DNA of 64,000 nt from an uncultured Verrucomicrobiae bacterium (GTDB lineage Bacteria; Verrucomicrobiota; Verrucomicrobiia; Limisphaerales; Palsa-1400). Location of the stretch: NCBI GenBank assembly GCA_963702845.1, contig OY969763.1, forward strand, positions 4,928,001 to 4,992,000, written 5' to 3'. This document shows, in pieces, positions 955-51,349 of the stretch. The notes beneath the pieces were generated by a model, which was not told the origin of the DNA, did not search any database, and saw only the letters and a program-made list of their open reading frames with translations. Both the position numbers and the translations under genes were made by a program. Within the stretch, counting starts at the first letter, position 1; each line of letters starts with the position of its first letter.

Positions 955-1012
955 AATACCGCTTGGTATCGAGTAGTACCGGTAAGTATCGGTTTAAAAA
1001 AAATTATTTTTT
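955..1012 (+). repeat. 10-bp-period tandem array x4 plus A/T tract (module M1)
   Basis: aataccgctt/ggtatcgagt/agtaccggta/agtatcggtt followed by t-aaaaaaaa-tta-tttttt. Confidence 0.8.
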
Positions 1013-1022
1013 CCGGCATCGA

Positions 1023-1050
1023 TTCATCCTTCTGCCTTCAGCCTTCAAAT
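1023..1050 (+). repeat. Heptamer tandem repeat x4
   Basis: ttcatcc/ttctgcc/ttcagcc/ttcaaat. Confidence 0.6.
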
Positions 1051-1220
1051 TTGCACCCGTGACGGCTGTGACCCGTCCCACGTGACGGGTCCAAACGCGA
1101 AAACCCACAATGTTTATGCGGCTTGGGACGACCTGACGGGTGTAGAGGGGATAGGTGGGGGTCTGTCCACCACAGCCTTCGCGGCGCCGAATGTCTTTTT
1201 GACCTTCTCTCTCACTTATC

Positions 1221-1270
1221 CAACTAAATGTCACCAGATGTCAGTAGATGTCACTAGATGCAACCAAAAA
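1221..1270 (+). repeat. 10-bp-period tandem array x4 plus short A tract (module M2)
   Basis: caactaaatg/tcaccagatg/tcagtagatg/tcactagatg then caaccaaaaa. Confidence 0.85.
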
Positions 1271-1370
1271 CGATCATACGTGGGCAGACACTTAGCGCAG
1301 ACACGTTGCGGAAAATCTCACGTAATCTCCAGTTCTCTACACCTGTCTGCCAGAGCCCAAAAAATTGCAC

Positions 1371-1425
1371 CTACTGCCACGTGCTGTCACCTGCTGCCGG
1401 CCACTGCCACCAAAAAATTATTTTT
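1371..1425 (+). repeat. 10-bp-period tandem array x4 plus A/T tract (module M3)
   Basis: ctactgccac/gtgctgtcac/ctgctgccgg/ccactgccac then c-aaaaaa-tta-ttttt (same tract as M1). Confidence 0.85.
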
Positions 1426-1543
1426 ATACAAGCGCCACAAAACTCAGAAATCTCCACGCCCGCTTGCGTTTCGTTGCACTCAACCACGCGATTTTACCCC
1501 CGGTTTTGACGCATTTCCGCGTACGCTCGCGACCATTCCCGAA

Positions 1544-2485
1544 TTAAAACTTCGCGATGTATTGTTCCAACTTCACGGCGTCGGCGGCGAAGGTGCGGAT
1601 GCCTTCGGACAATTTTTCGGTGGCCATGGCACTCTCATTCAGTTCCCAACGGAATTGTTTTTCGTCGAGGCTGCGTTTGGGCAATTGCAATTGTTTGGCC
1701 ATTTCGGGGGACAACTTGCGTTGGACGGGTTCCGTGCTGGATTTGAGTTCACCGAGCAGTTCGGGGCTGATGGTTAAGAGATCGCAGCCGGCCAACTCGA
1801 GGACTTCGGCTTTGCTGCGGAAACTCGCGCCCATGACTTCGGTCGGGTAACCGTACTTTTTGTAGTAGGCGTAAATCTCGCGAACAGAAACGACGCCGGG
1901 GTCTTCGGATGCGGCGTAGTCTTTACCGGTGCTTTTTTTGTACCAGTCGAGGATGCGGCCCACGAAGGGCGAGATAAGTTTGGCATCGGCTTCGGCGCAC
2001 GCGATAGCCTGCGCCATACAAAAGAGCAGCGTCATGTTGCAGTTGATGCCTTCCTTCTGCAGGACGCGCGCGGCCTGGATGCCTTCCCAAGTCGTGGCGA
2101 GTTTGATCAGGACGCGTTTGCGGTCGATGCCGCGCTTTTCGTAGAGGGAAATAAAGAGGCGCGCTTCGTTGAGGAGGGCGTCGGTGTCGAAGGAAAGTTT
2201 GGCGCTGGTTTCAGTAGAGACGCGTCCGGGGACAATTTTTAAAATCTCGAGACCGAAGGCGACGAGCAGGTTGTGGAAAATGGCTTCGTGCGAGAGCGAT
2301 TGTTTTTTGCCGTCGGCGATGACTTGTTCGACGACGGATTTGTATTCAGGCTTTTGGGCGGCTTTGAGGATGAGGGTCGGATTCGTTGTCGCATCTTGCG
2401 GCAAAAACTCTTTCATCAAGCCGAAGTCGCCGGTATCGGCAACGATGCGGGTGAATTGACGGAGTTGCTCAAGCTGGTTTGTCAT
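1544..2485 (-). CDS. tal: Transaldolase
   Basis: Motifs [58 protein letters not shown]; start placed at [11 protein letters not shown]. Confidence 0.96.
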
Positions 2486-2537
2486 ATGGAAATCAAACCC
2501 TGAATTGGAGAAAAAGCAATGAGGAGCGGGAAGGTCG

Positions 2538-2597
2538 GTCGAAAGTCGAAGGTCGAGAGTCGAGGGCAAAAGCGTCAGTCGGTCAGTCGGTGAGTCG
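2538..2597. repeat. Heptamer (GTCGARR x4) and octamer (GTSAGTCG x3) tandem repeats
   Basis: gtcgaaa/gtcgaag/gtcgaga/gtcgagg (2538-2565); gtcagtcg/gtcagtcg/gtgagtcg (2574-2597). Confidence 0.8.
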
Positions 2598-2617
2598 GAA
2601 GGTGGGAGGAATACGGA

Positions 2618-2645
2618 CGGCGCGCGCGGAGCGACGCGCCCTACC
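2618..2645 (-). repeat. GTAG-type REP-like palindrome
   Basis: Minus strand ggtagggcgcgtcgctccgcgcgcgccg; related copy at 62522-62548. Confidence 0.7.
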
Positions 2646-2671
2646 CTGCTCGCGAGGTTCGCGAGGAATGG

Positions 2672-3323
2672 TTATTGCAGTTTTAGGACGCCTTCGGAGA
2701 TGGCGAATTTGGTCAGGCCGGCGACGGAGTGGATGTCGAGTTTGCGCATCAAGCGTTCGCGGTGCGTTTCAATGGTGCGCACGCCGACGCCGAGTTGGTC
2801 GGCGATTTCTTTGTTGCTCAGGCCAGAGGCGATGAAGCGCAGGACTTCTTTTTCGCGATCGGACAAGTTGCTTATGGCCGGTTTATCGGCGGTGCGGGAT
2901 ATTTCGTTCAGCAAGACGCTGGAAATGGCAGGACTGAAAAAGGCTTCGCCGGAGTGAACCAATTCGATGGCGCGAATCAACTCGGCGGGCGGGCTGTTTT
3001 TCAGGACGTAACCGCGCGCGCCGGATTTCATAATCTCGACGACGTATTCGCGGTCCTGGTGCATGCTCAAGACGAGGACTTTGGTCTTGGGCGCGTTTTG
3101 CACGATGACCTTGGTGGCTTCAAGGCCGTTCATTTCCGGCATGTTGATGTCCATCAGTACCGATTGCCGGAGAAAATTCCTGAACGCGTTTGATGGCGTC
3201 TTTGCCGTTTTCGGCTTCGGCGACAATCTTCATGTTCGGCTGAGTCGAGAGACGGGCACGAATGCCCTCGCGGACGATCGGATGGTCGTCGGCTAAAATG
3301 ATTTTGATCGGATCGGATTTCAT
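2672..3323 (-). pseudogene. NarL/LuxR-family response regulator with a +1 frameshift near 3161 (pseudogene or assembly error)
   Basis: N-part IKIILADDHPIVREG in one frame, VLMDINMP..GYVLKN..LSDREKEVL..KEIADQL..HRERLMRKL in another; junction reads atc-g-gta-ctg-atg on the minus strand (one extra G). Confidence 0.85.
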
Positions 3324-3328
3324 CGGAT

Positions 3329-6157
3329 TTACCTACGGACGATTGCGAGTTCCTCCATCTTTTCCGCGCGCATGGAGATTTCAGGCGTGAGCCGAGGTAT
3401 TTTTACCTCGATCCGTGCCCCTTTGTCAGGAACCGATTTGAAATCCACAAATCCGCCAACGTAGGCGACACGCTCCATGATGCCGACGAGGCCCATGCCG
3501 GATTTTTTGCGCGGGTTCGATGCGTTGGCCGACGGCGATTTAAAGCCAATGCCGTTGTCCTCGATTTGCATGATGAGGCCGGTGGCGGTCTCGGACAAGG
3601 TAAGCGTGACGTCGGTGGCTTCAGAATGTTTTTCAACGTTGTTGAGCGCTTCCTGCATGATGCGGTAAATGGTCAGTTCGAGGTTCGGTGACAACTGCAC
3701 CGTGCGCGGCAAACTCAGTTCAACATTCACGCCAGTGCGATGCATGAATTCGCTGCAAAGACTGCGGACAGCCGGGATCAGTCCCAGGTCATCCAGCTCG
3801 CTGGGACGCAAGTTGCGGGAGATGCGCCAGACTTCGTGCATCGCTCGATCGAGAAGCCCCTTGGCTTTCGTAAGCGCTTCGGCAGTGACGGCATTGGGCA
3901 CGAGATCTTTTTCTTCGACGGAGTCGAGGCGGAATTTGGTCGACGACAAAATCTGGTTCACGGAATCGTGCAACTCGCGGGCGACGCGCATGCGTTCGCT
4001 TTCCTGCGCTTGCAGAATTTGGCCGGGAACTTCGCGCATCGCTTTTTCGGCGCGTTTGCGTTCGGTGATGTCGCGGAGATAGCCGGTGAAGATTGGGCCA
4101 CCTTCGATTTGAATGGGGGTGAGCGCCATTTCGGCGGGGAACTCAGTTCCGTCCTTGCGCATGGCCATGATTTCGATGCGGCGACCCATGAGGAAATCGC
4201 TGCCGCTTTCGACGTATTGCGAAATGGAGTCGCGATGGCGTTGGCGCGCTTCGGACGGGATAATCAAGGCCGCTAAGTCGCGGCCGATGGCTTCTTCGCG
4301 TGAGTAACCGAAAGTCTTTTGCGCAGCGGAGTTGAATTCCATGACGCGACCGTCACGATCCATGGTGATGATGCAGTCGAGCGCTGATTCCATGATCGCG
4401 CCTTTGAGGGCGTCGCTGGCGCGCAAGGCGGTTTCGGCACGGATTCGTTCGAGCGCGACACCGCAATAGTCCGCCAGCGTTTGCAACATCGAGAGATCTT
4501 CGTCGTCGAAGGCGTTGGGCTGATAGCTTTGGACGGAGAGCAAGCCGACGACCTGGGTGGCGTTACGAATCGGGACGTACATGATGGACGCCGAAGGTTT
4601 CGCTTTGTTGCCGAAGGGTTCGGAGTCGGTGGAAAACTGGATCGGCTCCTTTTTCAAGATAAGTTCACCGCCTTTTTGAATGATGCGGCGGTCGCGCTCC
4701 GTGAATTGCGTGTACATTTCCTGGGACGGAATGATGTAGCGCACACCGTCGACGGTATCGACATTGTAGACCGGCTGAATGCGTTCGTCGGGAGTGAAGA
4801 GGTTGAGAGTGAAGGCGTCCCAGCCGAACAATCCTTCGGAAACTTCACCAAGGATTCGCGCAGCATCTAACGGTGAAAGCGCGCCGTTCAATCGCTCGCC
4901 CAACGTCGACAACGCCGCGTTACGGAGTTCGCCCTGACGGCGTTTGGTGGTGTCACGAAACGTATTCAGCAAGAGCGGCATGTGGCCTTCCTGCTCGAGG
5001 AAGGAGTTGGACATTTCGACGTGAATCTTGCGGCCTTGCGCGAGGATGAGTCGCTTCTCCAAGTGGGGTTCGATGGTGCGTTGGCGGAAGTATTCTTTAA
5101 TTTTGCCAAGAATTTCTTCGCGACGGCTCTCGGGCGAAAAGATCGACAAGGGTTGACCTTCCAATTGTTCGCGCGAGCGTTCCATCAAATTGCAATAGGC
5201 ATGGTTGACGGCAAGGATGGTGCCCTGCTCATTGACGAGACGCATGCCGTCCAGGGAGTTTTCCCAGACGAAGCGGAGTTGCAGTTCAGATTGTTGACGT
5301 TCGGAGAGAATGGCGGCAGCAACCAGCGCGGTTAGGTTGATCGTGGCCAAAAACGGTAAGAGCAGGACCAAAGCAGTCCGTGGATCATCGGCACCGAACG
5401 GACCGTGGCCGCGAATGGTTCCCCAGAGCGCAATGACAGTTACGACTGCACTGGCAAGAGTTGCGCCGCGTTGGCAATAGCGCAACGCTGCCCAGAGGAC
5501 GATGGGGATGATGACATATCCGAGGGGATAGTTGGGCGTGGGAGCGGGGAGCCAACCCTGGAAAACAGCTTCGCTGCTGCCGATGGTCAGCAAGGCCAGG
5601 CAAATCAATTCGGCGGTTAGCTTTAATTCGACTCTCCATTGCAACCGCGAGACCCACACCACCAGCAACGGCGTGATGAGCAAATAACTGGCACACGACG
5701 ATAACCATGCGAGCGACCAACCGGTTGGCACGTGACCGAGCGTCCACGTTGAAGTCGCGACTAGAGTGATTGCTATGATCGAGGCGCTGACAATGGAACT
5801 CGTGCCGATGATCAGGACGAACTTGAAGATGTCCTGCGCTTTGTTAAAGACTTCGACCCCTTTCGCAACTTGCTTCGTCAGCTTCGCGGCAATTAAGGCT
5901 TCGACGGTTTGTCCCAGAGCAATGCCGATGGCCGAAGCGATGCCGAATCGGCCAATCGTTACGTTTACAAGCAGTGAGCCGATGAGGATGCCGGGCCAAA
6001 CTTCGTTTCCCAAAAAAAGAAAGGCAGTCAGTGCGATTCCCGCGGAAGGCCAGAAGAGACTAATATGTCCCGGAGTGCCGCCGACGGTCCACCCGAGCGC
6101 CCCGCCCGCGTAATACAACACCGCCACCGCCAAAATGCTGAGCAGCCGTTTTTTCAT
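3329..6157 (-). CDS. Sensor histidine kinase MASE1-PAS-GAF-PAS-HisKA_3-HATPase (NarX/UhpB type)
   Basis: Multi-TM MASE1-like N-terminus (FWPSAGIA), PAS and GAF segments, ERMRVARELHDSVNQ H-box, YRIMQEALNNVEKH, EDNGIGF, GMGLVGIMER. Confidence 0.92.
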   Translation of the reverse strand: MKKRLLSILAVAVLYYAGGALGWTVGGTPGHISLFWPSAGIALTAFLFLGNEVWPGILIGSLLVNVTIGRFGIASAIGIALGQTVEALIAAKLTKQVAKGVEVFNKAQDIFKFVLIIGTSSIVSASIIAITLVATSTWTLGHVPTGWSLAWLSSCASYLLITPLLVVWVSRLQWRVELKLTAELICLALLTIGSSEAVFQGWLPAPTPNYPLGYVIIPIVLWAALRYCQRGATLASAVVTVIALWGTIRGHGPFGADDPRTALVLLLPFLATINLTALVAAAILSERQQSELQLRFVWENSLDGMRLVNEQGTILAVNHAYCNLMERSREQLEGQPLSIFSPESRREEILGKIKEYFRQRTIEPHLEKRLILAQGRKIHVEMSNSFLEQEGHMPLLLNTFRDTTKRRQGELRNAALSTLGERLNGALSPLDAARILGEVSEGLFGWDAFTLNLFTPDERIQPVYNVDTVDGVRYIIPSQEMYTQFTERDRRIIQKGGELILKKEPIQFSTDSEPFGNKAKPSASIMYVPIRNATQVVGLLSVQSYQPNAFDDEDLSMLQTLADYCGVALERIRAETALRASDALKGAIMESALDCIITMDRDGRVMEFNSAAQKTFGYSREEAIGRDLAALIIPSEARQRHRDSISQYVESGSDFLMGRRIEIMAMRKDGTEFPAEMALTPIQIEGGPIFTGYLRDITERKRAEKAMREVPGQILQAQESERMRVARELHDSVNQILSSTKFRLDSVEEKDLVPNAVTAEALTKAKGLLDRAMHEVWRISRNLRPSELDDLGLIPAVRSLCSEFMHRTGVNVELSLPRTVQLSPNLELTIYRIMQEALNNVEKHSEATDVTLTLSETATGLIMQIEDNGIGFKSPSANASNPRKKSGMGLVGIMERVAYVGGFVDFKSVPDKGARIEVKIPRLTPEISMRAEKMEELAIVRR

Positions 6158-6218
6158 GGATCGGGCGCCCAGTTTAAGAAAGCGCACCCCGGAAGTAACG
6201 CCCAAAACACAGGTAAAA

Positions 6219-9200
6219 TCAGTGCAAATGCAGCGGCAGGCTGACGTTGTTGGACATAACGTAGCCGTAACCGCCGTTGTTCCACTGCAACACCGCGCCA
6301 TGACCGGTGAGGTTCCCAGGAGCACCCGTTGGACGATAGGTAACGGTTGCGGATCCGGTCGGCGCCGATATTGAACCAGCGAGGTAATTTGTGGGACCAC
6401 CGGGCAGTTTCACGATCGCGTTGTTGTTGCTAACCGCATACGGGAACGTTAATTGAGGTATCCCAATATCGAGGGCAGCATCGGCTGGATTGAGCGAAGG
6501 TGTCACCGGCATGTATGGTGAACCAAATAATTGAGTGACGTTGGTGAAACCATTTGTGTAGGTCGCGGTCAACGTGCCAGCGGGCCGGATCCAACTCACG
6601 TTGCCGCCGGGCCCGCCGCCGGAGAAGTTCAACCAGCCTTCGATCAAGCCGCGGTTGCCGTAGAGCGGAATGTAAAGCGGCCAGTAACCTTGTTGCGAAA
6701 TAGGGACTGTCTGGGAAATCGGCGTGCCGTCGCCGAGTGTGCCGATGAAAGAGATTATGCCCAAAGGAGTGTTCGTGACAAAACCGTATCCAAAACCGCC
6801 TGGTGAATACGTCGGCGCTCCGCCTCCCGGTGAAATGGCCAGTGTGTAACGCGCGGAATCCGGGAAACGATTAGCGCTGCTATACGGAGCAATGTCAGCC
6901 ATCAACACCGACGTCCATTCATCCGGCGCAGGCGAGGCGATGGTGCCAGTCATTTGCTTCGCAACAAAATCCAAATGAAGCGCAACGGTTAGAGCCGTTT
7001 TGCCGGAGCGCAGCATGTGTTTGGTCGCATTGCCATGGACATCAAAGGCGTCTGACAGGAGGTAACTGCTACCGTCGACTTTCAAAGTGCCGGAGAAGGT
7101 TGCGTCCGCACGCACGAGTAAGTTGAAAATCGCGCCCGCGGATTTTACGCGCACGCCATTGGTTTCGTAGAACAATCCGTTGTAACTGCCGTTGGCGTTG
7201 TTAGCCACGACCGGGTTTGTCACAAAATTTGCGGTCAATTGTAAATTGTCCGACATCCTAAACACGAAAGTGGGGTCACCCGAAAGCTCCGCGCCCGAGC
7301 CATTGACCCAATTTGAAAATACATTGCCGATCGCTGGCTTCGCGGAGATGCGGTAGTTGCGGCCAATTTCTAAAGTTGCGGTATTGGTTGCGGTGCCGAA
7401 CGTGAACGGCAACAGGGCGACTGTGGAACCCGCGCCCGTCGTGCTGACATGGAGAGTTGAAGGAACGCGCAAGAATAGATTCAAGGTGTTCGTCGAACTC
7501 CAACCGGCAGCGTCCGTGACAATTGCTGTAAACGTATTTGTGCCGGCCACGAGCGAAACAGCATTCGTCCAGCGCCAGGAATTTAGCGTTCCCACCAGAT
7601 TGGGAACGATCTTCATGGCCGCGTTCGACGGGAATGTGCGCGTAATCGTCAAACCAGCGACGCGACTGTTGTCCGTCGCGGACCCGCTGATCACAATCTG
7701 AGGCACCGTGCTGGTGATCGTGCCGAAGTGCGTCGCATAACTGTTGGTGAATCGCGCGTTGAGAGTGGGATAGCTGAACGTTACGTTTGGCCGAATCAGG
7801 TCACGCGCGACACTGAGATGGCCGGCACTCGACGAAGTCAACACCGCCGATTGGCAAAGCTCGGTGCCCACATAGCATCGATAAGTGCCGGCATCGTTTA
7901 TTTGCACACTGGCGATGGTGTAGATGCTATCGGTTGCGCCGCTGATATTCGTTCCGTTCTTCGCCCATTGGAATGTCATCTGGGAATTGGCGTTGGCGTT
8001 GGCAGCGAACGTCGCAGTGCTGCCGACGGTCTTGATTTGATTAGCTGGTTGAGCGGTGATCGTTGGAGCGACTTCTACGCCGAGCAATGCCACGCGGCTG
8101 GTGATCGATCCAGAGTCGTTGGTGACGATGCAAAAATACTGGCCAATATTCTTCGAGGTAACCGGTCCGACTGTCAGTGAAGCATTTGTTTCGCCGTTGA
8201 TGGAGGTTCCGATCGCACTGCCGGAATTCGCAAAATACCATTGGTAAATCAATGACGTCCCGCAGGCCTCGGCGGTGAAAATGTTTGTCGAATTGATTGA
8301 GACGCAATTGTCCGATGGCTCAGTGAGGAACGCGGGATCGGCAACTTTAACGATTGCATTACTGCTTCTGAGCGCCATGTCACCCGTGACTTGCACCGAA
8401 TAGGTTCCGGCATCGGCACGCGCGACAGCGATCACGGAGTAAGTTGCGTTCGTTGCGTCCTGAACCGGCGTTCCATTGTGTATCCATTGATAAGTTGGCG
8501 TGGTTGATCCACCGACGGTGACGCTCAAGCTTAACGTGTCGCACGCATTGAGAGTTTGGTTCGTCGGCTGAGTGATGATGATCGACGCGTCGCTCACGGT
8601 TACTGTTGCGGCTGTCGAAGTCGCACTGCCGATGTTGTTGGAAACGACGCACGAATAATTTCCGCTGTCGGTGTGCGCGATGCCCGCGACGGTCAAGTTA
8701 GCCGTATTTGCGCCGGAAACGTTCCCGAAGTTCGCCAGGGCAACACCGTCTTTGCTCCAGGAATAGGTGAACGGAGCGGTGCCGCTCACCGCGACACTGA
8801 GCACGCCTGTAGCGCCGACGTTCAACGTCTGAGTTTTTGGCTGTGTTGTAATCGACGGAGGCAAAAGTACGGTGAGTGTCGCCATACCGCTGGTCGCGCT
8901 ACCTGCTGAATTTGTGGCGACGCACTGATACGAGCCCGCATTCACTGCAGCGACGCTCACAACTGTCAGCGACGCGGTAGTCGCGCCGGAAATATTCGCA
9001 TTGTTAGTCACCGCTGCCCCGAGTCTCGTCCATTGATAACTGAGCGGTTGCGAACCTATCGCAGTGACGTTGAACGTAACCAGCGAAGCTGCGTTTGCCG
9101 TGGCGCTCGCGGGTTGGGAAGTGAAGATCGGCGGCGTGATAACTGTCAGTGCTGCGTCCGCGCTGATTGCGCTGCCGCCGAAATTCGTGACCGTGACTCT

Positions 9201-12218: not shown

Positions 12219-12414
12219 AACCCTACAAGCGGTTGTGTGCTCAACTTTCTCGTGTCTATATGTGCGCGTCTCATTACTCGACCGGTAATAGAGCAACTGG
12301 CTTGCCAGTCTAAGGTGGAGACTTATATCCGAGGGATTGAGCGGCCGATTTTCGGTCACTATTTCTGTCGATAAACAGAGACGAACCCATTAGCTTGAGC
12401 CCCGAAAAAAAGGA

Positions 12415-14250: not shown

Positions 14251-14261
14251 GAGCGGGCACC

Positions 14262-31002: not shown

Positions 31003-31028
31003 TACAGTTGCCGTCGGCGGCTGCGAAT

Positions 31029-31973: not shown

Positions 31974-32030
31974 TCGGAGCGCGATGGCAGGGTAAGGCTT
32001 TAGCATCGTTTTAAAAAAGGGAAAAAACTA

Positions 32031-32130
32031 CCGCGACTGGGTGTGACTGAGTGCGACTGGGCGCGACCAGGCGCGACAAATCCAGCTTCAGTCGCACCCC
32101 AGTCACACCACCGTCGCAGCTGGTCGCACC
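32031..32130. repeat. 10-bp-period array x5 followed by an inverted copy
   Basis: ccgcgactgg/gtgtgactga/gtgcgactgg/gcgcgaccag/gcgcgacaaa, then cagtcgcaccccagtcacacc..gtcgca..ggtcgcacc (near reverse complement of 32040-32059). Confidence 0.85.
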
Positions 32131-32391
32131 AATTACTTGCGCCAAAAAAAGAGGGGACAAAGTTACTGCTAAACGGTGCGAAAAATCGGGAAGTTTTAGC
32201 ACCGATTTCGCACCCATTTCGCAGTAGTGCTGTCCCGGCGGGATTCATGGCCGCGGAGCGAGTTTTATTGTTATTGATCATCGAAATATTCATTGCACCA
32301 CGTTACGAGACCAGCCAAAAAAAGTCTTCTTAGTGAATGGCGCTTTTTATTAAGAAAGGGATGGGACCATGAATTACGGATTGCAGATTAC

Positions 32392-32426
32392 AAAAACAAA
32401 AAAGCCGGCGATTGCTCGCCGGCTTT
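32392..32426 (-). terminator. Rho-independent terminator of the tol-pal operon
   Basis: aaagccggcga-ttgc-tcgccggcttt stem with a T-run on the minus strand, just after the pal stop. Confidence 0.85.
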
Positions 32427-32442
32427 GCGGGAAAGAACAGGA

Positions 32443-33051: not shown

Positions 33052-33080
33052 TTTTGCGTATGGTCGCAGAAGATTGGTCG

Positions 33081-35152: not shown

Positions 35153-35571
35153 TTGTGCTCCGCCGTGGCTGTGTGCGGTGAGACTTGCGTGATGTTATGG
35201 CGCATGCACGCGTCGATCACCGCGATGACGTTTTTCCATTCGGTGCGCGCGTCGGCGCGCAAGTCGACGATCAATTTGGGATTATTACGAAACGTATTTA
35301 CGAGTTCTGTTTCGAGCTGGCCAGCCGTCAACCGGTGACCCTGCATCCAATACTGACCAGACGGCGTAATCTCTATGATGCGGATATTGTTGCGGTCGAT
35401 ATTGCGCGTGTCGGTTTTGCCACCGGCGGGAAGCTGCATGTCGACCGTCTGCTCCAGCAATGGGCGTGTGATGACGAAAATAATGAGGAGCACGAACGCA
35501 AGGTCGAGCAGCGGGGTGATGTTGATTTCGTTCAACGTCACCAGCGAATTGCGTTGTGAAAAGCGGCGCAC
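35149..35571 (-). CDS. tolR: TolR/ExbD biopolymer transporter
   Basis: EINITPLLDLAFVLLIIFVIT, LRAD; operon context. Confidence 0.9.
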   Translation of the reverse strand: MRRFSQRNSLVTLNEINITPLLDLAFVLLIIFVITRPLLEQTVDMQLPAGGKTDTRNIDRNNIRIIEITPSGQYWMQGHRLTAGQLETELVNTFRNNPKLIVDLRADARTEWKNVIAVIDACMRHNITQVSPHTATAEHK

Positions 35572-35579
35572 GGCTAGTA

Positions 35580-35663
35580 GGTCGAGGGTCGAGGGTCGAA
35601 GGTCGAAGGCCAGGAACTCCGGTTGTTCGCCGGCTTTCGGCTTTCGGCTTTCGGCTTTCGGCT
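35580..35663. repeat. Two facing heptamer arrays (GGTCGAR x4; CGGCTTT x4) between tolQ and tolR
   Basis: ggtcgag/ggtcgag/ggtcgaa/ggtcgaa (35580-35607) and cggcttt x4 (35631-35658). Confidence 0.85.
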
Positions 35664-35666
35664 CAT

Positions 35667-36380
35667 TTAATCCCTCAAATATTCCGTCTCCATTTTGGAA
35701 ACGAGTTCTTGCGCAAAATTGTCCAGCTCGACCGTCCGGACGCGCAAGTTATGCACCAAATAGTTGTAGCCAAACATCGACGGGATCGCGACGAGCAAAC
35801 CTGCGACCGTCGTCACAAGCGCGGCGGACACACCGGGCGCCATCGTGGGCAAATCAGCGCGGCCCATTTTGCCGACGGCCGCGAACGTGTCCATGACGCC
35901 CCAAACGGTTCCCAACAAACCGAGGAACGGCGCACCGCTGACAGCGATGGCCAATAAAATGAGGCCGGATTCCAACTTGAGCGATTCGCGCGCGACGGCT
36001 CCTTCGATCGTGCGCTTGATGTGCTCCATCGACTTAAGCGTGATATACTTATCTCGGCCTTCGGTACCACCTTCGCCTTTGATTTTCAGGCGCATGTCCA
36101 GTTCGATACAGGCTTCGTTGTACACGGCGAACATGGGGCAACCATCCACTTGTAGGCGGCGGTCAAAAATTCCGAGCACATTTTTTTGCCCACGAAATTC
36201 CTTTTCGAAAAACAGGTTCAGTTTTCGCGCACGACGCATCTGCACGATCTTCGCAATCATCGTTCCCCACACGAAGATCGAAGCGACCGCCAAGATAATA
36301 ATGATCACTTTGGCTTCGGCCGTAGCCCGAAACCAAATGAACTGTAATTGTGTTTCCGCGAATAGTACGGGAACGTTCAT
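35667..36380 (-). CDS. tolQ: TolQ/ExbB proton channel
   Basis: APFLGLLGTVWGVM, MAPGVSAALVTTVAGLLVAIP..YNYL. Confidence 0.92.
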   Translation of the reverse strand: MNVPVLFAETQLQFIWFRATAEAKVIIIILAVASIFVWGTMIAKIVQMRRARKLNLFFEKEFRGQKNVLGIFDRRLQVDGCPMFAVYNEACIELDMRLKIKGEGGTEGRDKYITLKSMEHIKRTIEGAVARESLKLESGLILLAIAVSGAPFLGLLGTVWGVMDTFAAVGKMGRADLPTMAPGVSAALVTTVAGLLVAIPSMFGYNYLVHNLRVRTVELDNFAQELVSKMETEYLRD

Positions 36381-36591
36381 TGGTAAAACTTCTCAGCAAA
36401 AACTGCCGAGACTCCTTTCGGTCTCACGTGGAGGAATGTAATGGCTAAACTTATTACACGTTTGAACCGCATTTAACTGCCATTTAATCGGATTAAAAGC
36501 TCTAACGAAAAAGTTCGCAACAATATTCGCAAAATTTTGTGAAAAAGTGTGTGTTTGGTGGGTTTATTGGTTGGCTTTCCGACCACCCACA

Positions 36592-39963: not shown

Positions 39964-40040
39964 GTTGCCTTTATTTGATTCCTGCGTGTTCCCGGTTCCA
40001 AAAATAATGACACGCTCGTTCCGAGTCGTGTCTCATGATA

Positions 40041-41381
<1,341 letters not shown>

Positions 41382-41525
41382 CACTCGATACTTGGGCGTT
41401 TTCCTCAATGAATCAAGCCTCTTACTGCAAGGGTTTAGAGCCGAAGTTAGACACGAAGATTTCGGCTTTAAGTTGAAACGGCAATATCTTGCATTTGTGA
41501 CAGAAGTACTGTGTTCTTATGCCCG

Positions 41526-42572: not shown

Positions 42573-42611
42573 TTTCGTAACCCTGCTCACATCAGCGGCT
42601 ACATTATTCGC

Positions 42612-43610: not shown

Positions 43611-43654
43611 GCCTTTTCCCCCTGACTTGAGCCGTTCACTTCGGCGGTTACCTA

Positions 43655-44833
43655 TTACTCTGCGCTCGCAACGGATTTCTTCAACCCGAGGTTGCGCTCA
43701 TACGTTCCCAGCTTTGTCGGACTGGAAGCTTCTTTTGATCTGAGTTCTGCATCGAGATAAGCGAGCCGTTGTTGAGCAACGTCGGCGAGAGCGGTTTTCG
43801 GCAGCCGGTCGATAATTCGGCGCAAACTGTCTTCAGCGGCCCGGCGATCATTGGCAACTCGGATATGAAGGGTCGCCAGCAAATTCAGCCAACGCGCAAT
43901 GTTCTTCGGTGTCTCAACAGGGATCGCGATGAGTTGCTCCAATTGATCGGCGGCGAGGTCCATGCGCTTGAATTCGTCGGCGTAAATGACGGCAAGTTTT
44001 TCGCGCGCAGTCGTGTCCCAGGGATGAGCCTGAAGCTGTTCGACGAGGGCTGCGGCAGTTTCTGATGAGCGCGCTGGTTCCTCAACGGCGGCGGGGGCGG
44101 AGGTCAGCCCGAGATGACCTTCGTGGCGTTTAACTGTGTATGTCTTTGTGACCGGCACGGCGGTGAGCGAAGCGATGCGCTGGGCCGCCGTGTGCGCCTG
44201 TGGCGAATCGGGAAAACTCAGCACAATGCGTTCGAGATATTCGCGCGCGGCGCTCGCGTCTTCAGTATATTTTAGGCTCCAATCAGCCATCGTGTGCAAG
44301 GCTGTGGTGACGTATTGCACCGGGTGATTGGGGGCTTCGAGGAGGCGTTCGACGGTCAACTGCGCACTGGGCAGATCGTGCTGGTCTTCGGCTTGAATGC
44401 TGGCAATGAGCATGGTGGCGCGGAAATCGCCCGGAAACTTTTCGAGCTGTTTGCGAATTTCGGCAAGAGCACCGGCGTAATCACCACGTTGACGTCTGCC
44501 CTCGGCAATAGAGTAAAGCGGCGTCGGATCAACCTCCTGACGTCCGCCATCAAAAAGACTGGTCAGTGGACTTGCCACGAATTCTCCAATATGTGGTGCC
44601 CAAATTAGCCCGGCAGGCACCGCGAACAGCAGCAGAATCAACGGCGCAAACGGACCGAACTTCAGCGAAAATGGAAAACCAAATCCAAGAAGGCCGACAG
44701 TTATAATCCACTTAACAACTAACTTCGGCGGGTCTTCACTATTGCGAAGGGTGCGAACGGCGACCCAGCCAATGACGATAACAAAAAAGACCAGGCCTAA
44801 AATTCCGACGAATATGTTTCCTAGTCGATTCAT
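43655..44833 (-). CDS. Membrane-anchored TPR-like protein
   Basis: Three N-terminal TM segments followed by helical TPR-like repeats (QLEKFPGD, IVLSFPDS..A..AAQR). Confidence 0.7.
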   Translation of the reverse strand: MNRLGNIFVGILGLVFFVIVIGWVAVRTLRNSEDPPKLVVKWIITVGLLGFGFPFSLKFGPFAPLILLLFAVPAGLIWAPHIGEFVASPLTSLFDGGRQEVDPTPLYSIAEGRRQRGDYAGALAEIRKQLEKFPGDFRATMLIASIQAEDQHDLPSAQLTVERLLEAPNHPVQYVTTALHTMADWSLKYTEDASAAREYLERIVLSFPDSPQAHTAAQRIASLTAVPVTKTYTVKRHEGHLGLTSAPAAVEEPARSSETAAALVEQLQAHPWDTTAREKLAVIYADEFKRMDLAADQLEQLIAIPVETPKNIARWLNLLATLHIRVANDRRAAEDSLRRIIDRLPKTALADVAQQRLAYLDAELRSKEASSPTKLGTYERNLGLKKSVASAE

Positions 44834-44859
44834 AAACGCCGAATCACTCCGGCGCGGGG

Positions 44860-45618
44860 CTACTCTTTAGATAAATCAAATTTCAAGACCGTTTGCGAGC
44901 CTGTTTTTGCATTGTGCATGTCCATCTTTTCCAAACGCCATTGGCCGTTCACCTTTTTGAAGCTGCTGCCGTGCAGAGAGAATTCTTTGACCAACTTGTT
45001 TCTGGCATCGTAACCCTCGGCGAGAAGGATGCCGTTTGACTCTTTGTCGACGAAAGCCTTGATGCGGACGATTTCACGCGCGCTTGGATTGATACTTTCG
45101 AGGATATAGCAATCGCGGCCGAGACGCAGTTCGCCTTTGAGGCGGGCTTGCTCAGGCCAGAAAATGAATTCGGTTCCGAGGTCGGTCAGCCAAAAATCAG
45201 ATTGTGCGAACGGCACGTAAGCTTGTTGCGTTGCAATTGGTCTGGGTTGTGGAATCGGCGAACCGACTGTTGCTGCACGCGCGTATGCGTATTGGGGCAC
45301 TCCGCCGGCAGTGCGCGTGATTATTAACAGCTCGCCGGGAATGCCAGCAGTGGGCTTCGATTCGTAAATCGTTTGCCACGTGTTACCGCGCACGACGATT
45401 CTGCAGACAACGGGAATATGCTTTTTGCCATCATGGGAGATGTTAAGCACACCGTGAATTTCCGAATCGTGTTCAGGCCGACCCGCCTGAATTTCCCGCA
45501 CGAGTCTTTGGCCTTCGGCGAGTTGGTCGGCAGAGGGAGCGCTGACTCTCGCCCCAAACACGCAGCAACTTAAGAATGTAATGAAAACTGCCCCGCAGAC
45601 TGTGTATCTGTTTTTCAT
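44860..45618 (-). CDS. LolA-like outer membrane lipoprotein-sorting family protein
   Basis: Signal peptide; PFAQSDFWLTDL, GRDCYILES, YDARNKLVKE, KKVNGQW..MHN..T.L motifs. Confidence 0.72.
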   Translation of the reverse strand: MKNRYTVCGAVFITFLSCCVFGARVSAPSADQLAEGQRLVREIQAGRPEHDSEIHGVLNISHDGKKHIPVVCRIVVRGNTWQTIYESKPTAGIPGELLIITRTAGGVPQYAYARAATVGSPIPQPRPIATQQAYVPFAQSDFWLTDLGTEFIFWPEQARLKGELRLGRDCYILESINPSAREIVRIKAFVDKESNGILLAEGYDARNKLVKEFSLHGSSFKKVNGQWRLEKMDMHNAKTGSQTVLKFDLSKE

Positions 45619-45659
45619 CTCCGTTCCACTAGCCAACCACACCCTGACCGTTTTGTCTA

Positions 45660-47165
45660 CTAGGCGACGCTGGCGGCAAGCTCTTCCTCGACGTCCACGA
45701 TCTCTTTTATTTGCGCGAGGAACCAGCGGTCGATTTTCGTCAGGTTGAAAATATCATCAATCGTGAAGCCGGCGCGCATGGCGTGGCGGATGAAGAAAAT
45801 GCGTTCGGCGTTTGGGGCACTGAGCTTTTGGGTGATGACGTCGCGCGGAAGGATGTCGCGGTCGCCGTAAACTTCTGTGCCGATACGCCAGGCTTTGCCG
45901 TCGCCGCCGAGACCGGAACGGCCGACTTCGAGCGAGCGCAATGCTTTTTGCAAAGACTCTTTAAACGTGCGTCCGATGGCCATGGCTTCACCAACGGACT
46001 TCATTTGCGTGTTCAGCGTCGGGTCGGCTTGCGGGAATTTTTCGAAAGCAAAACGCGGAACTTTGGTGACGACGTAATCGATGGTCGGCTCGAAGCTCGC
46101 AGGGGTTTCGCGCGTGATGTCGTTTTTGATTTCGTCGAGCAAGTAACCGATCGCCAGTTTGGCGGCGATTTTGGCGATGGGGAAACCAGTCGCTTTCGAC
46201 GCAAGCGCGGAGGAACGCGACACGCGCGGGTTCATCTCGATGATAACCATACGGCCATTGTCGGGATTCACGCCAAATTGAATGTTCGAACCACCGGTTT
46301 CAACGCCGACGGCGCGAATGATCGCGAAGCTCGCGTCGCGCATGAGTTGATATTCTTTGTCGGTCAGCGTTTGGATCGGCGCGACGGTGATGGAGTCGCC
46401 GGTGTGAACGCCCATCGGGTCGAAATTTTCGATGGAGCAAACGATCACGCAATTGTCGGCGCAATCGCGCATGACTTCCATTTCGTATTCTTTCCAACCG
46501 AGCAAGGACTCTTCGATCAGGACTTCCGAAACGGGCGATAGTTCGATGCCGCGTTTGGCCATCATTTCAAATTCTTCGCCGTTGTAGGCGATGCCACCGC
46601 CGGTACCACCGAGAGTGTAGGCAGGGCGGATGATGAGCGGAAATTTGCCAATCTTGTCGGCGACGGCGTGGGCTTCTTCGATGTTATGAGCGGTGCCGCT
46701 GATGGGGACATCCAGACCGATGGAGAGCATCAGGTCTTTGAAAATCTGGCGGTCTTCACCACGTTGAATCGCGGCCGCATCTGCTCCGATCATTTCCACG
46801 TTGAACTTTTTCAACGTCCCACGTTTGTTCAACGCCATCGCGGTGTTAAGAGCGGTTTGACCACCTAGCGTTGGCAGTAAAACCAATTTGCCCTTTGCGC
46901 CCATGCGCTTCATTTCGGCGACTTCACGTTCGATGATTTTTTCGACGCACTCAGGTGTGATCGGCTCGATGTAGGTGCGATCGGCGAACTCAGGATCGGT
47001 CATGATCGTGGCCGGGTTCGAGTTGACGAGGACGATGCGATAGCCTTCTTCGCGCAAGGCCTTGCAGGCTTGCGTGCCGGAATAGTCGAATTCGCACGCC
47101 TGGCCGATAATAATCGGGCCTGCGCCAATAATCAGAACTGAATGTATGTCGTCGCGACGAGGCAT
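45660..47165 (-). CDS. carB: Carbamoyl-phosphate synthase large subunit, N-terminal half only (501 aa)
   Basis: [60 protein letters not shown]; stops after [13 protein letters not shown]. Confidence 0.92.
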
Positions 47166-47173
47166 TGCCGGAA

Positions 47174-47207
47174 AAAGCTAAAGGCTAAAGGCTAAAGGAT
47201 AAAGCGG
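47174..47207. repeat. Heptamer repeat (AAAGGCT) directly upstream of carB
   Basis: aaagct/aaaggct/aaaggct/aaaggat/aaagcgg. Confidence 0.7.
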
Positions 47208-47221
47208 AAAGATGTGATTCC

Positions 47222-49537
47222 CTACGGGACAGAACAACGATAGAAGCGAGTTGGGAATATATTTGCGTTGGTGTCAGTGAACTGCCAGGCACCATTGGCC
47301 GGAGCGGCGTTGGTGAAAATGGGCTGCCAACCCACAGGTGGTGTCAGGCTGGTCGCAGCGAGAATAGTGCCGTTGGCGTTAGGCGCAGTTAACAAGTTCA
47401 TCGTCAGCGTGCCGTCGTTGTTTCTGCGCGGATTGGAGATCATTGTCAGAACGTTCGCCTGCGCAACCATCGAAGAAGCGTTTGTTCCCGCGGCGCTCAG
47501 AACCCCGCCAACATATAAGCGGCCAAAGTTGTCAGTGGCCAGAGAGATGATAATGGCATTGACGCCTGAGCCAAGTGCGGACCAGTTGGTCCCGTTCCAC
47601 CGGGCGATTCGATTGACCAGCAGTCCCGAAGCATTGGTGAACGCACTGCCAGCGTAAAGATTTTGCGCGGGATCGAGCGCCAGTGAGTAAACATAGTAAT
47701 CCAGACCATTCCCAAGCGATGACCAGTTCGTGCCGTCCCAAACAGCGACATAGTTCGCCGGGACGCCAGACATGCTGGTGAATTGTCCACCGGCGTATAA
47801 TCGGCCATCGCGTCCCATAGCCAGTGACCCAACATAAACGGTGCCCGCTGATGTGCCGGAGCCCAATGTGGACCAGGAGGACCCGTTCCATTTCGCAATT
47901 GAGTTCACAGGCAAGCCGCCCGCGGTGGTGAAACTGCCCCCCATGTAAACGTTGCCAGCATGGTCGAATGCAAACGCGTCGACATTGGCGTTTGCGCCGG
48001 TGATTCCGGACCCCAATGCTGACCAATTTGTGCCATTCCATTTGGCAACTCCGTTGGCAGACACGCCGCCGACGCTGGTAAAAAATCCACCAGCGTAAAG
48101 GTTACCCGCTCCGTCCGAGGCAAGACCAAAAACGGGTTCCGATCCTCCCGCGCCCGACCCAAGCGGAGACCAAGTGTTGCCGTTCCATTTTGCGATGCAA
48201 TTTGCAGCGGTGCCACTGATGGAACTGAATTGGCCTCCCGCATAAACATTCCCCGCCTTGTCGGTCGTCATGATGTTGATGTTTCCATTGCTGACACCCG
48301 AGCCCATAGCGGACCATGCCGTGCCGTCCCACTTGGCAACGTTGCTTACGATTAATCCTCCCACCGTGGTAAAGTCACCGCCTGCATACAAGTTTCCCGC
48401 AGGGTCGGTGGTGATCGAATAAACAAGCTGGTTTAATCCCTGCCCCAGAGCTGACCATGCGTTTCCGTTCCAGCGCGCGATGTTAAGCGCGGTATTGCCC
48501 CCCGCACCGGAAAAATTACCCCCGTAAAAAACGTTGCCAAAGCTGTCTGCCACGATGGTAAAAACGTTGGCTACACCAAGACCCGCACTTAACGCAGACC
48601 AATTCCCGTTATAAACCGCGGCGTGTGCCGCCGGCGAACCACCTGCGCTGGTAAACAATCCGCCGGCATAAAGGTTGCCGTTCGAGTCGAAAGCCAATGC
48701 GGCCACGGATCCGCCGATGCCCGAACCAACTTGAAACCACCCTGATCCGTCCCAATACGCGACGCGCAGAGCTGCGAAATTGTCCGCACTAGTAAATTGT
48801 CCGCCAGCGTAGAGATATCCGAATGAATCAAACACGAGCGCGGTGACGGTAGAATTCATTCCCGAACCGACGGTCGACCAAGAAGTGCCATTCCAAACAG
48901 CAACGCGGTTGGCGGCCAGCGTCCCAATATTCGTGAAACTGCCACCGGCAAATACGTTCCCGCTAGTATCTGCAGCAAGCGCGGCGACGCTTGAATTCAT
49001 CCCCGCGCCCACCGCGGACCACGTCGAACCGGTCCACTTAGCAATGTTGGTTGCGCCTATTGTCGTATTGGTGAAGGAACCTCCCGCATAGAGTATTCCC
49101 GATGAATCGACGGCCAGTGACAAAATGCCACCTTTTACCGCAAAACCAATTCCCGTCCAATTCGTGCCATCCCACTTCGCGACGTTTGTCGCGAGCAGAT
49201 TCACATTTGTGAAAGCTCCACCTGCGTAGAGATTGCCTGATGCATCTATCGCCAGGGCTCGAACCGTTCCGCCGAGTCCGGCACCAACGTTTGACCATCG
49301 CGTGCCGTCCCATTTGGCGACGCCCAGAGAAATCGCGGTTGCAAGTGCATTGAACATGCCAGCAGCGTAGGTGATACTGTTTTTCGAATCCTGAAGAGTT
49401 GCATAAACGGTACCGTCAGCGCCGGGCGGCACGCCAAGTGATACCCAACGGTTATCAGTAAAAGTTTCCCCGTGAATCGCTAACGCGGCAAAAATCAGGG
49501 TCCCAAACCCTGCAAATATTCCATAATTAGTCTTCAT
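47222..49537 (-). CDS. Secreted beta-propeller repeat protein
   Basis: About 14 repeats of LA.D..GNLYAGG.FT..GG....IAKW.G..WS.LG.G; signal peptide; ends TRFYRCSVP. Confidence 0.85.
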   Translation of the reverse strand: MKTNYGIFAGFGTLIFAALAIHGETFTDNRWVSLGVPPGADGTVYATLQDSKNSITYAAGMFNALATAISLGVAKWDGTRWSNVGAGLGGTVRALAIDASGNLYAGGAFTNVNLLATNVAKWDGTNWTGIGFAVKGGILSLAVDSSGILYAGGSFTNTTIGATNIAKWTGSTWSAVGAGMNSSVAALAADTSGNVFAGGSFTNIGTLAANRVAVWNGTSWSTVGSGMNSTVTALVFDSFGYLYAGGQFTSADNFAALRVAYWDGSGWFQVGSGIGGSVAALAFDSNGNLYAGGLFTSAGGSPAAHAAVYNGNWSALSAGLGVANVFTIVADSFGNVFYGGNFSGAGGNTALNIARWNGNAWSALGQGLNQLVYSITTDPAGNLYAGGDFTTVGGLIVSNVAKWDGTAWSAMGSGVSNGNINIMTTDKAGNVYAGGQFSSISGTAANCIAKWNGNTWSPLGSGAGGSEPVFGLASDGAGNLYAGGFFTSVGGVSANGVAKWNGTNWSALGSGITGANANVDAFAFDHAGNVYMGGSFTTAGGLPVNSIAKWNGSSWSTLGSGTSAGTVYVGSLAMGRDGRLYAGGQFTSMSGVPANYVAVWDGTNWSSLGNGLDYYVYSLALDPAQNLYAGSAFTNASGLLVNRIARWNGTNWSALGSGVNAIIISLATDNFGRLYVGGVLSAAGTNASSMVAQANVLTMISNPRRNNDGTLTMNLLTAPNANGTILAATSLTPPVGWQPIFTNAAPANGAWQFTDTNANIFPTRFYRCSVP

Positions 49538-49712
49538 AGAAGTTGCCCAACCGCTGCTCGGGGGATGCCCAATTCTGTAACCCCGTTTCGGGCTTGTCAA
49601 ACAAAGCCAACGCCAAAAATGCGCGGTTAGTCGTCGCGCCGAGGCATATTATTTCAAAACTCGAATCCGAAACCGGAACGTCCGGTTCGCATTAAAGCAC
49701 GAAACTTATGGA

Positions 49713-50828
49713 CTAAACACCTGTCCTGGCGGTCGCCGCTGCCGCTTGTGTGATAGCGCGCTTCGCCATAATGGCTTCGATGATCTTTTTGCCGAGATCA
49801 GGTTTTTCGACGAGTGCGAGGCGCGCGGCGTCTTTGCCTTGGCCAATCAGTTCGCCACCGAACTGGAGCCATGCGCCTTTCTTATCAACGGCGCCGGTGG
49901 CGATGCCCATGTCGATGATGCTGCCTTCTTTGTTGATGCCGTGGTTGTAAATGATTTCAAATTCGGCTTCGGCAAAGGGCGGCGCGACTTTGTTTTTCAC
50001 GATCTTCACTTTGACGCAGTTACCGATGGCGTTGCCGGCGGAGTCTTTCAAGGTGTCGCGACGGCGGATGTCGATGCGGACGCTGGCGTAAAATTTCAGC
50101 GCTTTACCGCCGGGGGTCGTTTCGGGATTGCCGAACATGACGCCGACTTTTTCGCGGAGTTGGTTGGTGAAAATGCAGGTCGTTTTGGACTTGTTCAGGA
50201 TGGCGGTGAGTTTGCGGAGCGCCTGGCTCATGAGGCGGGCTTGCATTCCCATGGTGGCCATGCCCATTTCGCCTTCGAGTTCGGCTTTCGGGACAAGCGC
50301 GGCGACGGAGTCGATGACGATGACGTCGAGGGCGTTGGAGCGCGCGAGCGTTTCGCAAATGGTCAGGGCTTCTTCACCGCTGTCCGGTTGCGAGACGAGC
50401 AGGTCGTCGAGATTGACGCCGAGTTTTTTGGCATAAGCGGGGTCGAGCGCGTGTTCGGCGTCGATGAAGGCTGCCAGACCGCCGGACTTTTGTGCGTTGG
50501 CGATGACGTGGAGCATCAAGGTCGTTTTACCGGAGGATTCAGGGCCGAAGATTTCAACGACGCGGCCGCGGGGCAAACCGCCGACACCGAGGGCGAGATC
50601 AACGGCGAGTGCGCCGGTGGGGATGACTTCGATGCCGACTTTGGAGCGGGCATCGCCGAGGCGCATGATGCTGCCTTCACCGTAGGCTTTGGTGATGGTG
50701 GAAATGGCGGCGTCGAGATCGCGTTGGCGCGCGGCAGAAATTTTGCCGTCATTCGCTTTTTCGACGGCTTTCGGGTCCGCTTTTGATTCAGGCGCAGGCG
50801 CAGCCGGTTTTTCAGTTTTTGGAGGCAT
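49713..50828 (-). CDS. recA: Recombinase RecA
   Basis: [61 protein letters not shown]. Confidence 0.99.
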
Positions 50829-50925
50829 AAAAATCGAGTGTTAAAGTCCTAAATTGTTGAGTGAATTTGAGCCGATGCGTTGGTGTTAGTCAATGCGGTT
50901 CGGTAGAAACAAAAGGCGGCTACTA

Positions 50926-50980
50926 AACAATCTTTTATTTTACCGTTAGGAACCGTTAGGAAGTGATAGGAACCGATATC
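50926..50980 (-). repeat. 10-bp-period array x4 plus A/T tract (module M4)
   Basis: Plus strand aacaatcttttattt then taccgttagg/aaccgttagg/aagtgatagg/aaccgatatc. Confidence 0.8.
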
Positions 50981-50988
50981 CGCACCGC

Positions 50989-51050
50989 AAAATAAAGGAT
51001 TCCTTTTTTTAGGGTTAAAGAAGTTTAAAGAAGTTTTATAAAGTTTAATT
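50989..51050 (-). repeat. 10-bp-period array x4 plus A/T tract (module M5)
   Basis: Plus strand aaaataaaggattccttttttt then agggttaaag/aagtttaaag/aagttttata/aagtttaatt. Confidence 0.8.
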
Positions 51051-51157
51051 CCGGGTCCCCGGGATGCTGGTTCCAAGCTGCAGAATTCGGGATCGAAGTT
51101 TGATAACCTCCGAAGACGTGAAACCGTCAGCGCGGGACCAAACGAATGGAACGCGCG

Positions 51158-51229
51158 AAAAAAAGGATTCTTTTTTTGGTGTCCAGAGGTGTCCAGAACT
51201 GTCCGCAGGTGTCCGGAGGTGTCCGTCGG
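51158..51229 (-). repeat. 10-bp-period array x5 plus A/T tract (module M6)
   Basis: Plus strand aaaaaaaggattctttttttgg then tgtccagagg/tgtccagaac/tgtccgcagg/tgtccggagg/tgtccgtcgg. Confidence 0.88.
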
Positions 51230-51322
51230 AGGATTTTCAAACGTGCAACTCATCCGAACACGCGGTTTTTGTCGCGTATCAATTTTATGATTTTCAATTT
51301 TCATGAGGTGAGCTTAGCAAGG

Positions 51323-51349
51323 TCACTTGGACAAAGGCTGTCCAAGTGA
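51323..51349. promoter_or_regulatory. Perfect 11-bp inverted repeat, candidate operator
   Basis: tcacttggaca-aaggc-tgtccaagtga, next to a minus-strand TG-n-TAAGCT -10-like box at 51311-51319. Confidence 0.55.

Follow-up and report, generated by a model that had tools for sequence, protein, structure and literature searches.

Helically phased intergenic arrays in a verrucomicrobial genome are linked to phage-type terminase genes and may be pac-like loading sites

A 64,000-nucleotide stretch of the genome of an uncultured Verrucomicrobiae bacterium (contig OY969763.1, positions 4,928,001 to 4,992,000; here called the window) contains seven intergenic modules, M1 to M7, in which short degenerate units are repeated at a 10-bp period, in most cases next to an A/T tract. 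Following these modules through the source genome (G000, a single contig of 6.03 Mb) and its relatives, we find that such arrays are real, lie outside the catalogued repeat families and are linked to genes for the small (TerS) and large (TerL) subunits of phage-type terminases. From sequence comparison, we see about even chances that the arrays are loading sites, similar to phage packaging (pac) sites, for the TerS of small, probably mobile TerS(-TerL) units, and the modules of the window are likely gene-free relics of such units.

Results

A blind pair-match scan for four 10-bp units (maximum score 60, cut-off 36) yielded 237-238 arrays in the 885 kb of intergenic DNA of G000, compared to 0, 1 and 4 in three dinucleotide shuffles, which rules out chance occurrence as tested along the lines proposed with an earlier, sequence-only reading of the window. 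All seven modules of that reading, with their 4-5 units at a 10-bp period, were recovered blind (955, 1221, 1368, 32032, 50939, 51009 and 51186; scores 39-48 of 60), and no other intergenic position of the window scored 32 or more. A simpler lag scan of G000 gave 160 period-10 arrays versus 2 in a block shuffle, 155 of the 160 being intergenic according to our own crude gene calls. The 238 arrays fall into 149 loci and 57 sequence clusters. Four units are found in 166 arrays, five in 55 and more in 17, with perfect expansions reaching 8-11 units in some cases, and a three-unit scan contributed just 24 of 214 calls; a length of 4-5 units is the true mode. An A4..T4 tract flanks 78 of the 238 arrays versus 4.5% of random intergenic spots. 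The A/T tract described beside each module of the window is generally present, except that 1221 has an A run only and 32032 a T-then-A flank, whereas the single orientation of stacked modules extends to the whole genome (20 of 22 neighbouring pairs).

With regard to unit sequence, G000 contains about 54 types without a common consensus, as the information content of these 54 units (4.40) compares to 4.27±0.15 for shuffled ones. A W-A-n-n-n-G consensus from a first alignment was dropped, because shuffled units score equally well. Sense-oriented TerS-linked units show a weak excess in information (4.34 versus 4.05±0.17, maximum 4.37), and the phase of A/T steps agrees weakly with that of the A run (p about 0.02), a partly circular test in that the A run may be the beginning of a fifth unit. 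Contrary to the idea that every module has its own unit, six of the seven window types have further copies and occur at 2-10 places of G000 each, window copy included; only for the type at 1221 was no second copy found at the cut-off used. The proposed selection on layout gains support from the fixed period, the 4-5-unit mode, the swapping of units at orthologous sites and the weak A/T-step phase. Besides, G000 also holds 127 period-7 arrays.

Clustering of the 572 genes adjoining array loci surfaced phage terminase genes. Pfam and PHROGs labels assign them to small terminases of the Mu-gp27 type (PF11985, phrog_426) and of a second type (phrog_6299), Terminase_6 large subunits and portals, while a 123-residue helix-turn-helix (HTH) protein gave weak profile matches only. 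In G000, 8/13 Mu-gp27-type TerS loci, 5/7 genes for the 123-residue protein and 6/19 TerL loci have an array at most 300 bp away, the background rate being 3.4% of 5063 called genes. In other genera arrays occur at 11/25 TerS and 7/25 TerL loci versus 2/33 recA, transaldolase or pal loci. In five related genomes we counted 15 arrays within 1.5 kb of TerS (60 kb) versus one elsewhere (340 kb), an about 80-fold concentration at TerS; this density count covers twenty 20-kb stretches whose loci had been scored for arrays earlier, so that only the background is new. No link of the arrays to GxxExxY genes was found.

Applying a strict distance rule, 36 of 91 TerS loci have an array, and 48 of 86 have an adjacent one once the 3' tail of the frame is counted. 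The array either precedes the ATG by about 45-80 bp, with an A run and in some cases a T run in between, or stands at the 3' end of the gene (26 of 86). Outside the family, arrays were found at 5/5 solo TerS loci versus 0/3 phage-like ones (sorted by eye). A TerS-type array is present at none of three head-operon TerL loci, one of these operons holding a repeat of another type, and no array was found at an orphan TerL locus (L314) or at the gcvH-side loci L312-L313; loci L318-L323 were selected after arrays had been seen there. Furthermore, unit similarity follows TerS similarity, with 1.6 mismatches at ≥90% protein identity and about 5 at ≤30%. The Mu-gp27-type family is present in 28 of 31 genomes of the bacterial family, often in many copies, and is rarer outside (3/12 other genomes of the order, 3/150 sampled from the phylum); the closest relatives of the large terminases carry the labels Verrucomicrobiales or Verrucomicrobiota. 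Array-linked TerS(-TerL) genes are located directly between housekeeping genes. Five islands of G000 (134k, 1715k, 2248k, 4296k and 4828k; L052) that resemble phage-inducible chromosomal islands (PICIs) also have TerS-TerL pairs, lack arrays, show primase-like neighbours in view at four of five and carry their TerS genes on the G-rich strand.

The linked proteins appear to be maintained. Codon position 2 is the most conserved in 9/9 TerS paralogue pairs and position 3 the least in 8/9, a pattern that indicates purifying selection on these paralogues. An AlphaFold model of TerS (pLDDT 82), with an N-terminal three-helix domain followed by long helices, fits the predicted layout of an HTH plus helices. 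A Foldseek search with this model returned no match at E≤0.001. In a further structure search, G20C TerS (4xvn) was among tied helical matches (Z 6.2, root-mean-square deviation 8.6, 97 residues aligned). TerL paralogues keep their reading frames and conserved motifs, which we take to be the ATPase and nuclease motifs. Two orphan TerL genes (L041, L046) carry in-frame period-7-like insertions between the ATPase and nuclease parts. A single phage head module of G000 (5239999-5249251; L311) encodes protease, capsid, adaptor, portal and a split TerL and adjoins gcvH; G008 and G014 have head operons near the same efflux genes (L312, L313, L316 and L317, examined alongside). It is possible that the gcvH-side module represents a domesticated cluster resembling gene transfer agents (GTAs). 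No tail genes were noticed beside the G000 module, for which no family-level tail search was made.

Both the units and the genes change places. Sister genomes have swapped units at the orthologous recA, pal and imuA sites and at those of two other genes: the recA site of G002 carries an M1-type array, and the gap between pal and the DUF6807 gene is without an array in G001 (L227), while its unit in G002 (L226) differs from that of G000. The ligA site retains the same two units across sister genomes. TerS trees reveal expansions confined to a single genome or genus, in line with separate amplification of the terminase units within genomes. Such a unit of about 1-1.5 kb consists of a promoter, a TerS-family HTH gene, an array and sometimes TerL; expanded TerS copies share about 0.7-1.45 kb, from the promoter region to shortly past the array or gene end, and have unrelated flanks. 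The closest terminase paralogues adjoin different host genes in G000 than in G001 and G002. Similarity between copies often stops shortly after the array, and gene-free modules sometimes retain a TerL start stub, one of them 30 codons long. As contigs are short and the genomes rearranged, a clean empty-site proof of movement is precluded.

Host DNA next to the arrays shows a polar strand skew, measured as G-C at four-fold sites and corrected for gene strand and replichore. The rise in skew is 0.145±0.022 across the 149 array loci versus 0.009±0.008 at 1012 other gaps, and it is present in all four gene-orientation classes. In the 76 loci that could be oriented by their A/T tract, the upstream side has an excess of C on the sense strand, with a skew of -0.23 at 0-1 kb, -0.16 at 6-9 kb and -0.04 at 16-24 kb; values are negative at 64 of the 76 and near zero more than 2 kb downstream. 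The polarity persists in 65 gene-free loci and in either replichore, whereas 77 period-7 loci do not show it. When control gaps are oriented according to their C content, they reach -0.056 and -0.041, and none of 5000 resampled control sets attained the observed values. At arrays the skew switches from C to G, the origin-like direction, in 46 cases and from G to C in 13, compared to 180 and 171 cases at control gaps. This sign would be expected for a one-directional fork or strand displacement that leaves the module upstream. A bidirectional origin was considered and dropped, since the profile looked symmetric only as long as the loci were unoriented. Across G000, the skew forms patches of about 10-16 kb that exceed chance fivefold and also exceed the replichore signal.

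A palindrome that stands upstream of recA in the window recurs at 27-29 places in G000, 18 in G002 and 9 in G041, and is likely part of a promoter/operator. TerS genes, a WYL-domain regulator, primase-like genes and short open reading frames (ORFs) have it some 20 bp ahead of their ATG. It is also found upstream of ligA and imuA-imuB, heads array stacks and precedes a conserved protein of 67-71 residues. These genes make the palindrome set (window, L057, L061 and L063) a candidate LexA-independent damage regulon of the bacterial family, in which we infer a DNA-damage-type operator read by the WYL protein. The verrucomicrobial LexA box has only 3 intergenic matches in G000, and a pattern search found no LexA-like protein. 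The skew at the arrays has the direction opposite to transcription from this putative promoter.

Discussion

If the arrays are pac-like loading sites, a TerS oligomer would bind one helix face of the 40-50 bp array, the A/T tract would serve as bend or cut point, and bound TerS would recruit TerL. Nicking or cutting by TerL would then start a one-directional DNA process of which the polar skew would be the trace, while repair at the cut sites would copy, stack and swap modules. Through the WYL regulator, the palindromic promoter would put a part of this system under the DNA-damage response.

A considerable number of observations weigh against this interpretation. Only 22 of the 149 array loci of G000 have a terminase gene or remnant within 800 bp (127 have none), among them no locus of the window, where the modules are surrounded by host genes, and for M3 and M7 no terminase-adjacent array match was found. 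Conversely, 38 of 86 solo TerS genes lack a scored array, the second TerS family has one within 300 bp at 1 of 9 genes, and repeats of period 7, 8 and 9 also occur near TerS (25, 12 and 15 of 91 loci). Phages that carry this type of terminase hardly show arrays, with a period-10 match of any kind at 4 of 80 viral loci, so that the arrays are not an inherited pac site. The correlation between unit and TerS similarity is explained by physical linkage alone. Terminal repeats and target duplications were not seen at the terminase units, as judged by eye; for this reason, and because sister genomes are rearranged, the case for mobility rests on position. Concerning the skew, G000 is patchy everywhere (standard deviation 0.22 versus 0.044), the upstream skew is weak, about -0.045, at 20 TerS loci from other genera irrespective of an array, and eleven array-free palindrome sites are likewise C-rich. 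In the window only the recA locus fits (-0.34), the skew at 955 being close to zero and that at 32032 of opposite sign. Finally, the sections on SPP1 and SF6 in PMC4737164 describe pac repeats as having little effect on binding by the TerS domain.

A more far-reaching version, which we regard as possible but rather doubtful, sees the terminases as a chromosome-wide machine: TerS paralogues, some of which would stand under the DNA-damage-type promoter, would load about 150 dispersed arrays, and TerL would nick or cut there, so that 10-20 kb of host DNA are displaced, replicated or packaged in one direction and the cut moves units and reshuffles modules. If true, this would be a terminase-driven mobile element combined with a distributed gene-transfer or auxiliary-origin system, recorded as a mosaic of skew.

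It is unlikely that the arrays are operators at which HTH proteins of terminase origin, recruited by the host as transcription regulators, control their own genes together with host genes, for instance recA, ligA, thrS and imuA. The operator bank for HTH proteins envisaged in the sequence-only reading came nearest to our result, in that HTH genes are indeed linked, but these proteins turned out to belong to small-terminase families of phages. Arrays often end 5-30 bp ahead of the ATG of TerS or TerL, 77 of 104 oriented modules face a same-strand gene compared to a background of 60%, and stacks separate the palindromic promoter from host genes, all of which would suit a regulatory role. This is hard to combine with the many arrays at the TerS 3' end, with orthologous promoters that swap units or have none, and with a surplus of about 54 unit types over 29 TerS-like or HTH loci. 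Moreover, regulation would leave unexplained the intact TerL partners and a 10-20 kb skew running against the promoter direction.

With still lower probability, the arrays are by-products of slippage and gene conversion in a lineage rich in short-period repeats that travel with accessory genes, and old blocks of rearrangement account for the skew. The period-7 arrays, the perfect expansions and the genome-wide patchiness of the skew point in this direction, as does the fact that one unit type (ACACGGAC) flanks one of the only 3 four-helix-bundle genes of G000. However, slippage does not lead us to expect a sharp mode of 4-5 units with few 3-unit arrays or the concentration at TerS in other genera, and random breakpoints would not produce the observed imbalance of skew switches.

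Iteron origins combine repeats with an A/T-rich tract, and this resemblance, along with a skew sign that corresponds to a leading strand moving away from the module, raises the idea of iteron-like, one-directional auxiliary origins fired in trans. We consider this improbable, because no initiator gene is linked, the primase-bearing islands are without arrays, the skew is weak in relatives and A+T skew shows little. Even less probable is a function as RNA, namely as sites in front of start codons to which a translation factor would bind, an idea put forward for the TAACTGA repeats discussed below. Array-tract-ATG junctions (13 of 104 by pattern) and the consistent sense strand would agree with it, but the next gene on the same strand is a median of 270 bp away, both the DNA-helix period and the dozens of units are more in keeping with binding to DNA, and the 7 array loci searched (22.8 kb) gave zero Rfam matches. 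Least probable are the Xis/Cox-type attachment (att) arms of integrase-less mini-elements proposed from the sequence, for despite phased arrays stacked in one orientation beside bendable tracts there is no common crossover core, the linkage is to terminases, all 10 tyrosine-recombinase loci are at least 11.9 kb away from arrays and 5 of 6 Xis-like genes more than 24 kb. A nucleoid or partition scaffold would account for neither the terminase link nor the polarity.

Among known systems, the pac site of phage P1 offers hexamers spaced at 10 bp. The section on pac in PMC10028697 describes seven hexamers, arranged as a group of four and a group of three that flank an IHF site. For SPP1, three sets of direct repeats span the terS promoters and start, and a ring of HTHs has been proposed to select bent DNA in SPP1 and SF6, according to the pac sections of PMC4737164. 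By analogy, the arrays likely work most like these two pac sites; the module family, though not the copies of the window, has direct repeats and an A/T-rich bend beside a TerS-family gene. In contrast to phage pac, there are 238 chromosomal arrays with dozens of units, mostly gene-free, while phage and prophage copies of the same terminase family are mostly without arrays and the window loci lie among host genes. IS607 elements carry, at 20-60 bp from their ends, four direct repeats of 9 bp in helical phase, on which a cooperative filament nucleates, and end sequences are unrelated between elements of the family, which make no target duplication (from the part of PMC6188088 on element ends). 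The likeness concerns the layout only, that is phased repeats and no target duplication seen, whereas the genes linked to arrays here are terminases; a PF00239 search of G000 (90% complete by markers) found no IS607-type TnpA and two serine recombinases with frames of 509 and 553 residues.

In PICIs and lateral transduction, non-phage elements with their own TerS package chromosomal DNA from a site in or near terS. The array-linked units, however, have no integrase, primase or att sites, and the PICI-like islands of G000 carry no arrays. GTAs are host-resident packaging genes under host control with one terminase pair and near-random packaging; G000 likewise has one head module with a split TerL, but differs in its many terminase paralogues, each with an array. 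As regards other intergenic repeats, the TAACTGA heptamers of Beggiatoaceae are described in the repeat section of PMC4679880 as hundreds of direct-repeat sets with 2-6 copies, often before start codons. They consist of one fixed 7-bp unit, in contrast to many 10-bp units with an A/T tract and terminase linkage. The repeats flanking four-helix-bundle genes are also short, intergenic and direct, but the arrays described here are linked to terminases instead. The arrays thus fall outside phage pac, IS607, att arms, PICI and TAACTGA repeats. We found no published description of them or of terminase-only units in a search that was thin on subscription papers and excluded supplements.

To our knowledge, terminases have been described as packaging motors of phages, but not as proteins encoded many times in one chromosome that also holds hundreds of their sites. 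The arrays likely belong, as docking sites of TerS, to small and probably mobile units of a kind not described before. Provided that the arrays are TerS sites, they would offer dozens of natural protein-array pairs to probe TerS recognition, for which the relevant section of a review (PMC9611059) leaves unresolved whether sequence or shape is read. Besides, the polar skew points to a DNA process that starts at many fixed chromosomal points, and such a process would bear on gene exchange, rearrangement and perhaps replication in these bacteria.

Features of the window

The features of the window are listed in Table 1. Clear terminase-adjacent matches exist for three modules and a weak one for a fourth. 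M1-type arrays directly precede the start codon of TerS in G001 (L245) and are found upstream of recA in G002 (L241). M4 resembles an array preceding TerL in G002 (L277; E 6e-4), M5 recurs as the spacer between TerS and TerL at 2184445-2184507 of G000 (86% over 63 bp), and M2 weakly resembles (E 0.002) an array just after a solo TerS in G012 (L361). Besides, a copy of the M6 cluster at 5555399 of G000 terminates in an ATG stub that resembles a TerL start.

Table 1. Modules and associated features in the window (positions count from its first nucleotide; places include the window copy)
Feature	Position	Strand	Description	Places in G000
M1	955..1012	+	4 x 10-bp array (955-994), then A8/T-rich tract (996-1012)	7
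M2	1221..1270	+	4 x 10-bp array with ATGTCAC core, then A5 run without T tract	
M3	1368..1425	+	4-5 x 10-bp array, then A6/T tract	6
M7	32009..32130	.	T4-A6-GGG-A6 flank, 4-5 x 10-bp array (32032-32076), partial inverted copy (32089-32130); between pal and DUF6807 gene	10
recA	49713..50828	-	Host gene downstream of the M6-M5-M4 stack	
ORF of 151 codons (MKIEN...)	50849..51304	-	Begins at the palindromic promoter and spans M6-M4; without Pfam match; probably spurious	
M4	50926..50978	-	4 x 10-bp array, then A/T tract; closely precedes the recA promoter region	
M5	50989..51048	-	4 x 10-bp array, then AAAAAAAGGAATCCTTT tract	
M6	51159..51227	-	5 x 10-bp array, then AAAAAAAGAATCCTTTTTTT tract	6
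Palindrome	51324..51348	-	Perfect arms, CACTTGGACA-N5-TGTCCAAGTG (25 bp), about 20 bp before an ATG; likely part of a promoter/operator	

In 4 of 6 relatives compared, lpxA is read directly before recA; in G000 it is far from recA, and the M6-M5-M4 stack therefore stands at the site of an old rearrangement. The lpxA gene of G015, upstream of recA, has the end of a 10-bp array (L015, 598-661) immediately ahead of its start codon. G002 lacks, at the same site, the four ORFs that separate the palindrome from a phosphoesterase gene in the window (51573-54129). Between M1 and M2 (1043-1167) there is a repeat with GTGACGG cores, of which about 10 further copies exist in G000, several of them near arrays, and next to M7 a second, weaker phased and inverted block (32163-32229) matches arrays at 5531851 and 5729671 of G000. 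Furthermore, operons of the window contain period-7 and period-8 arrays at 35569-35672, 47165-47218 and 2569-2612 (exbD/exbB, accC and transaldolase).

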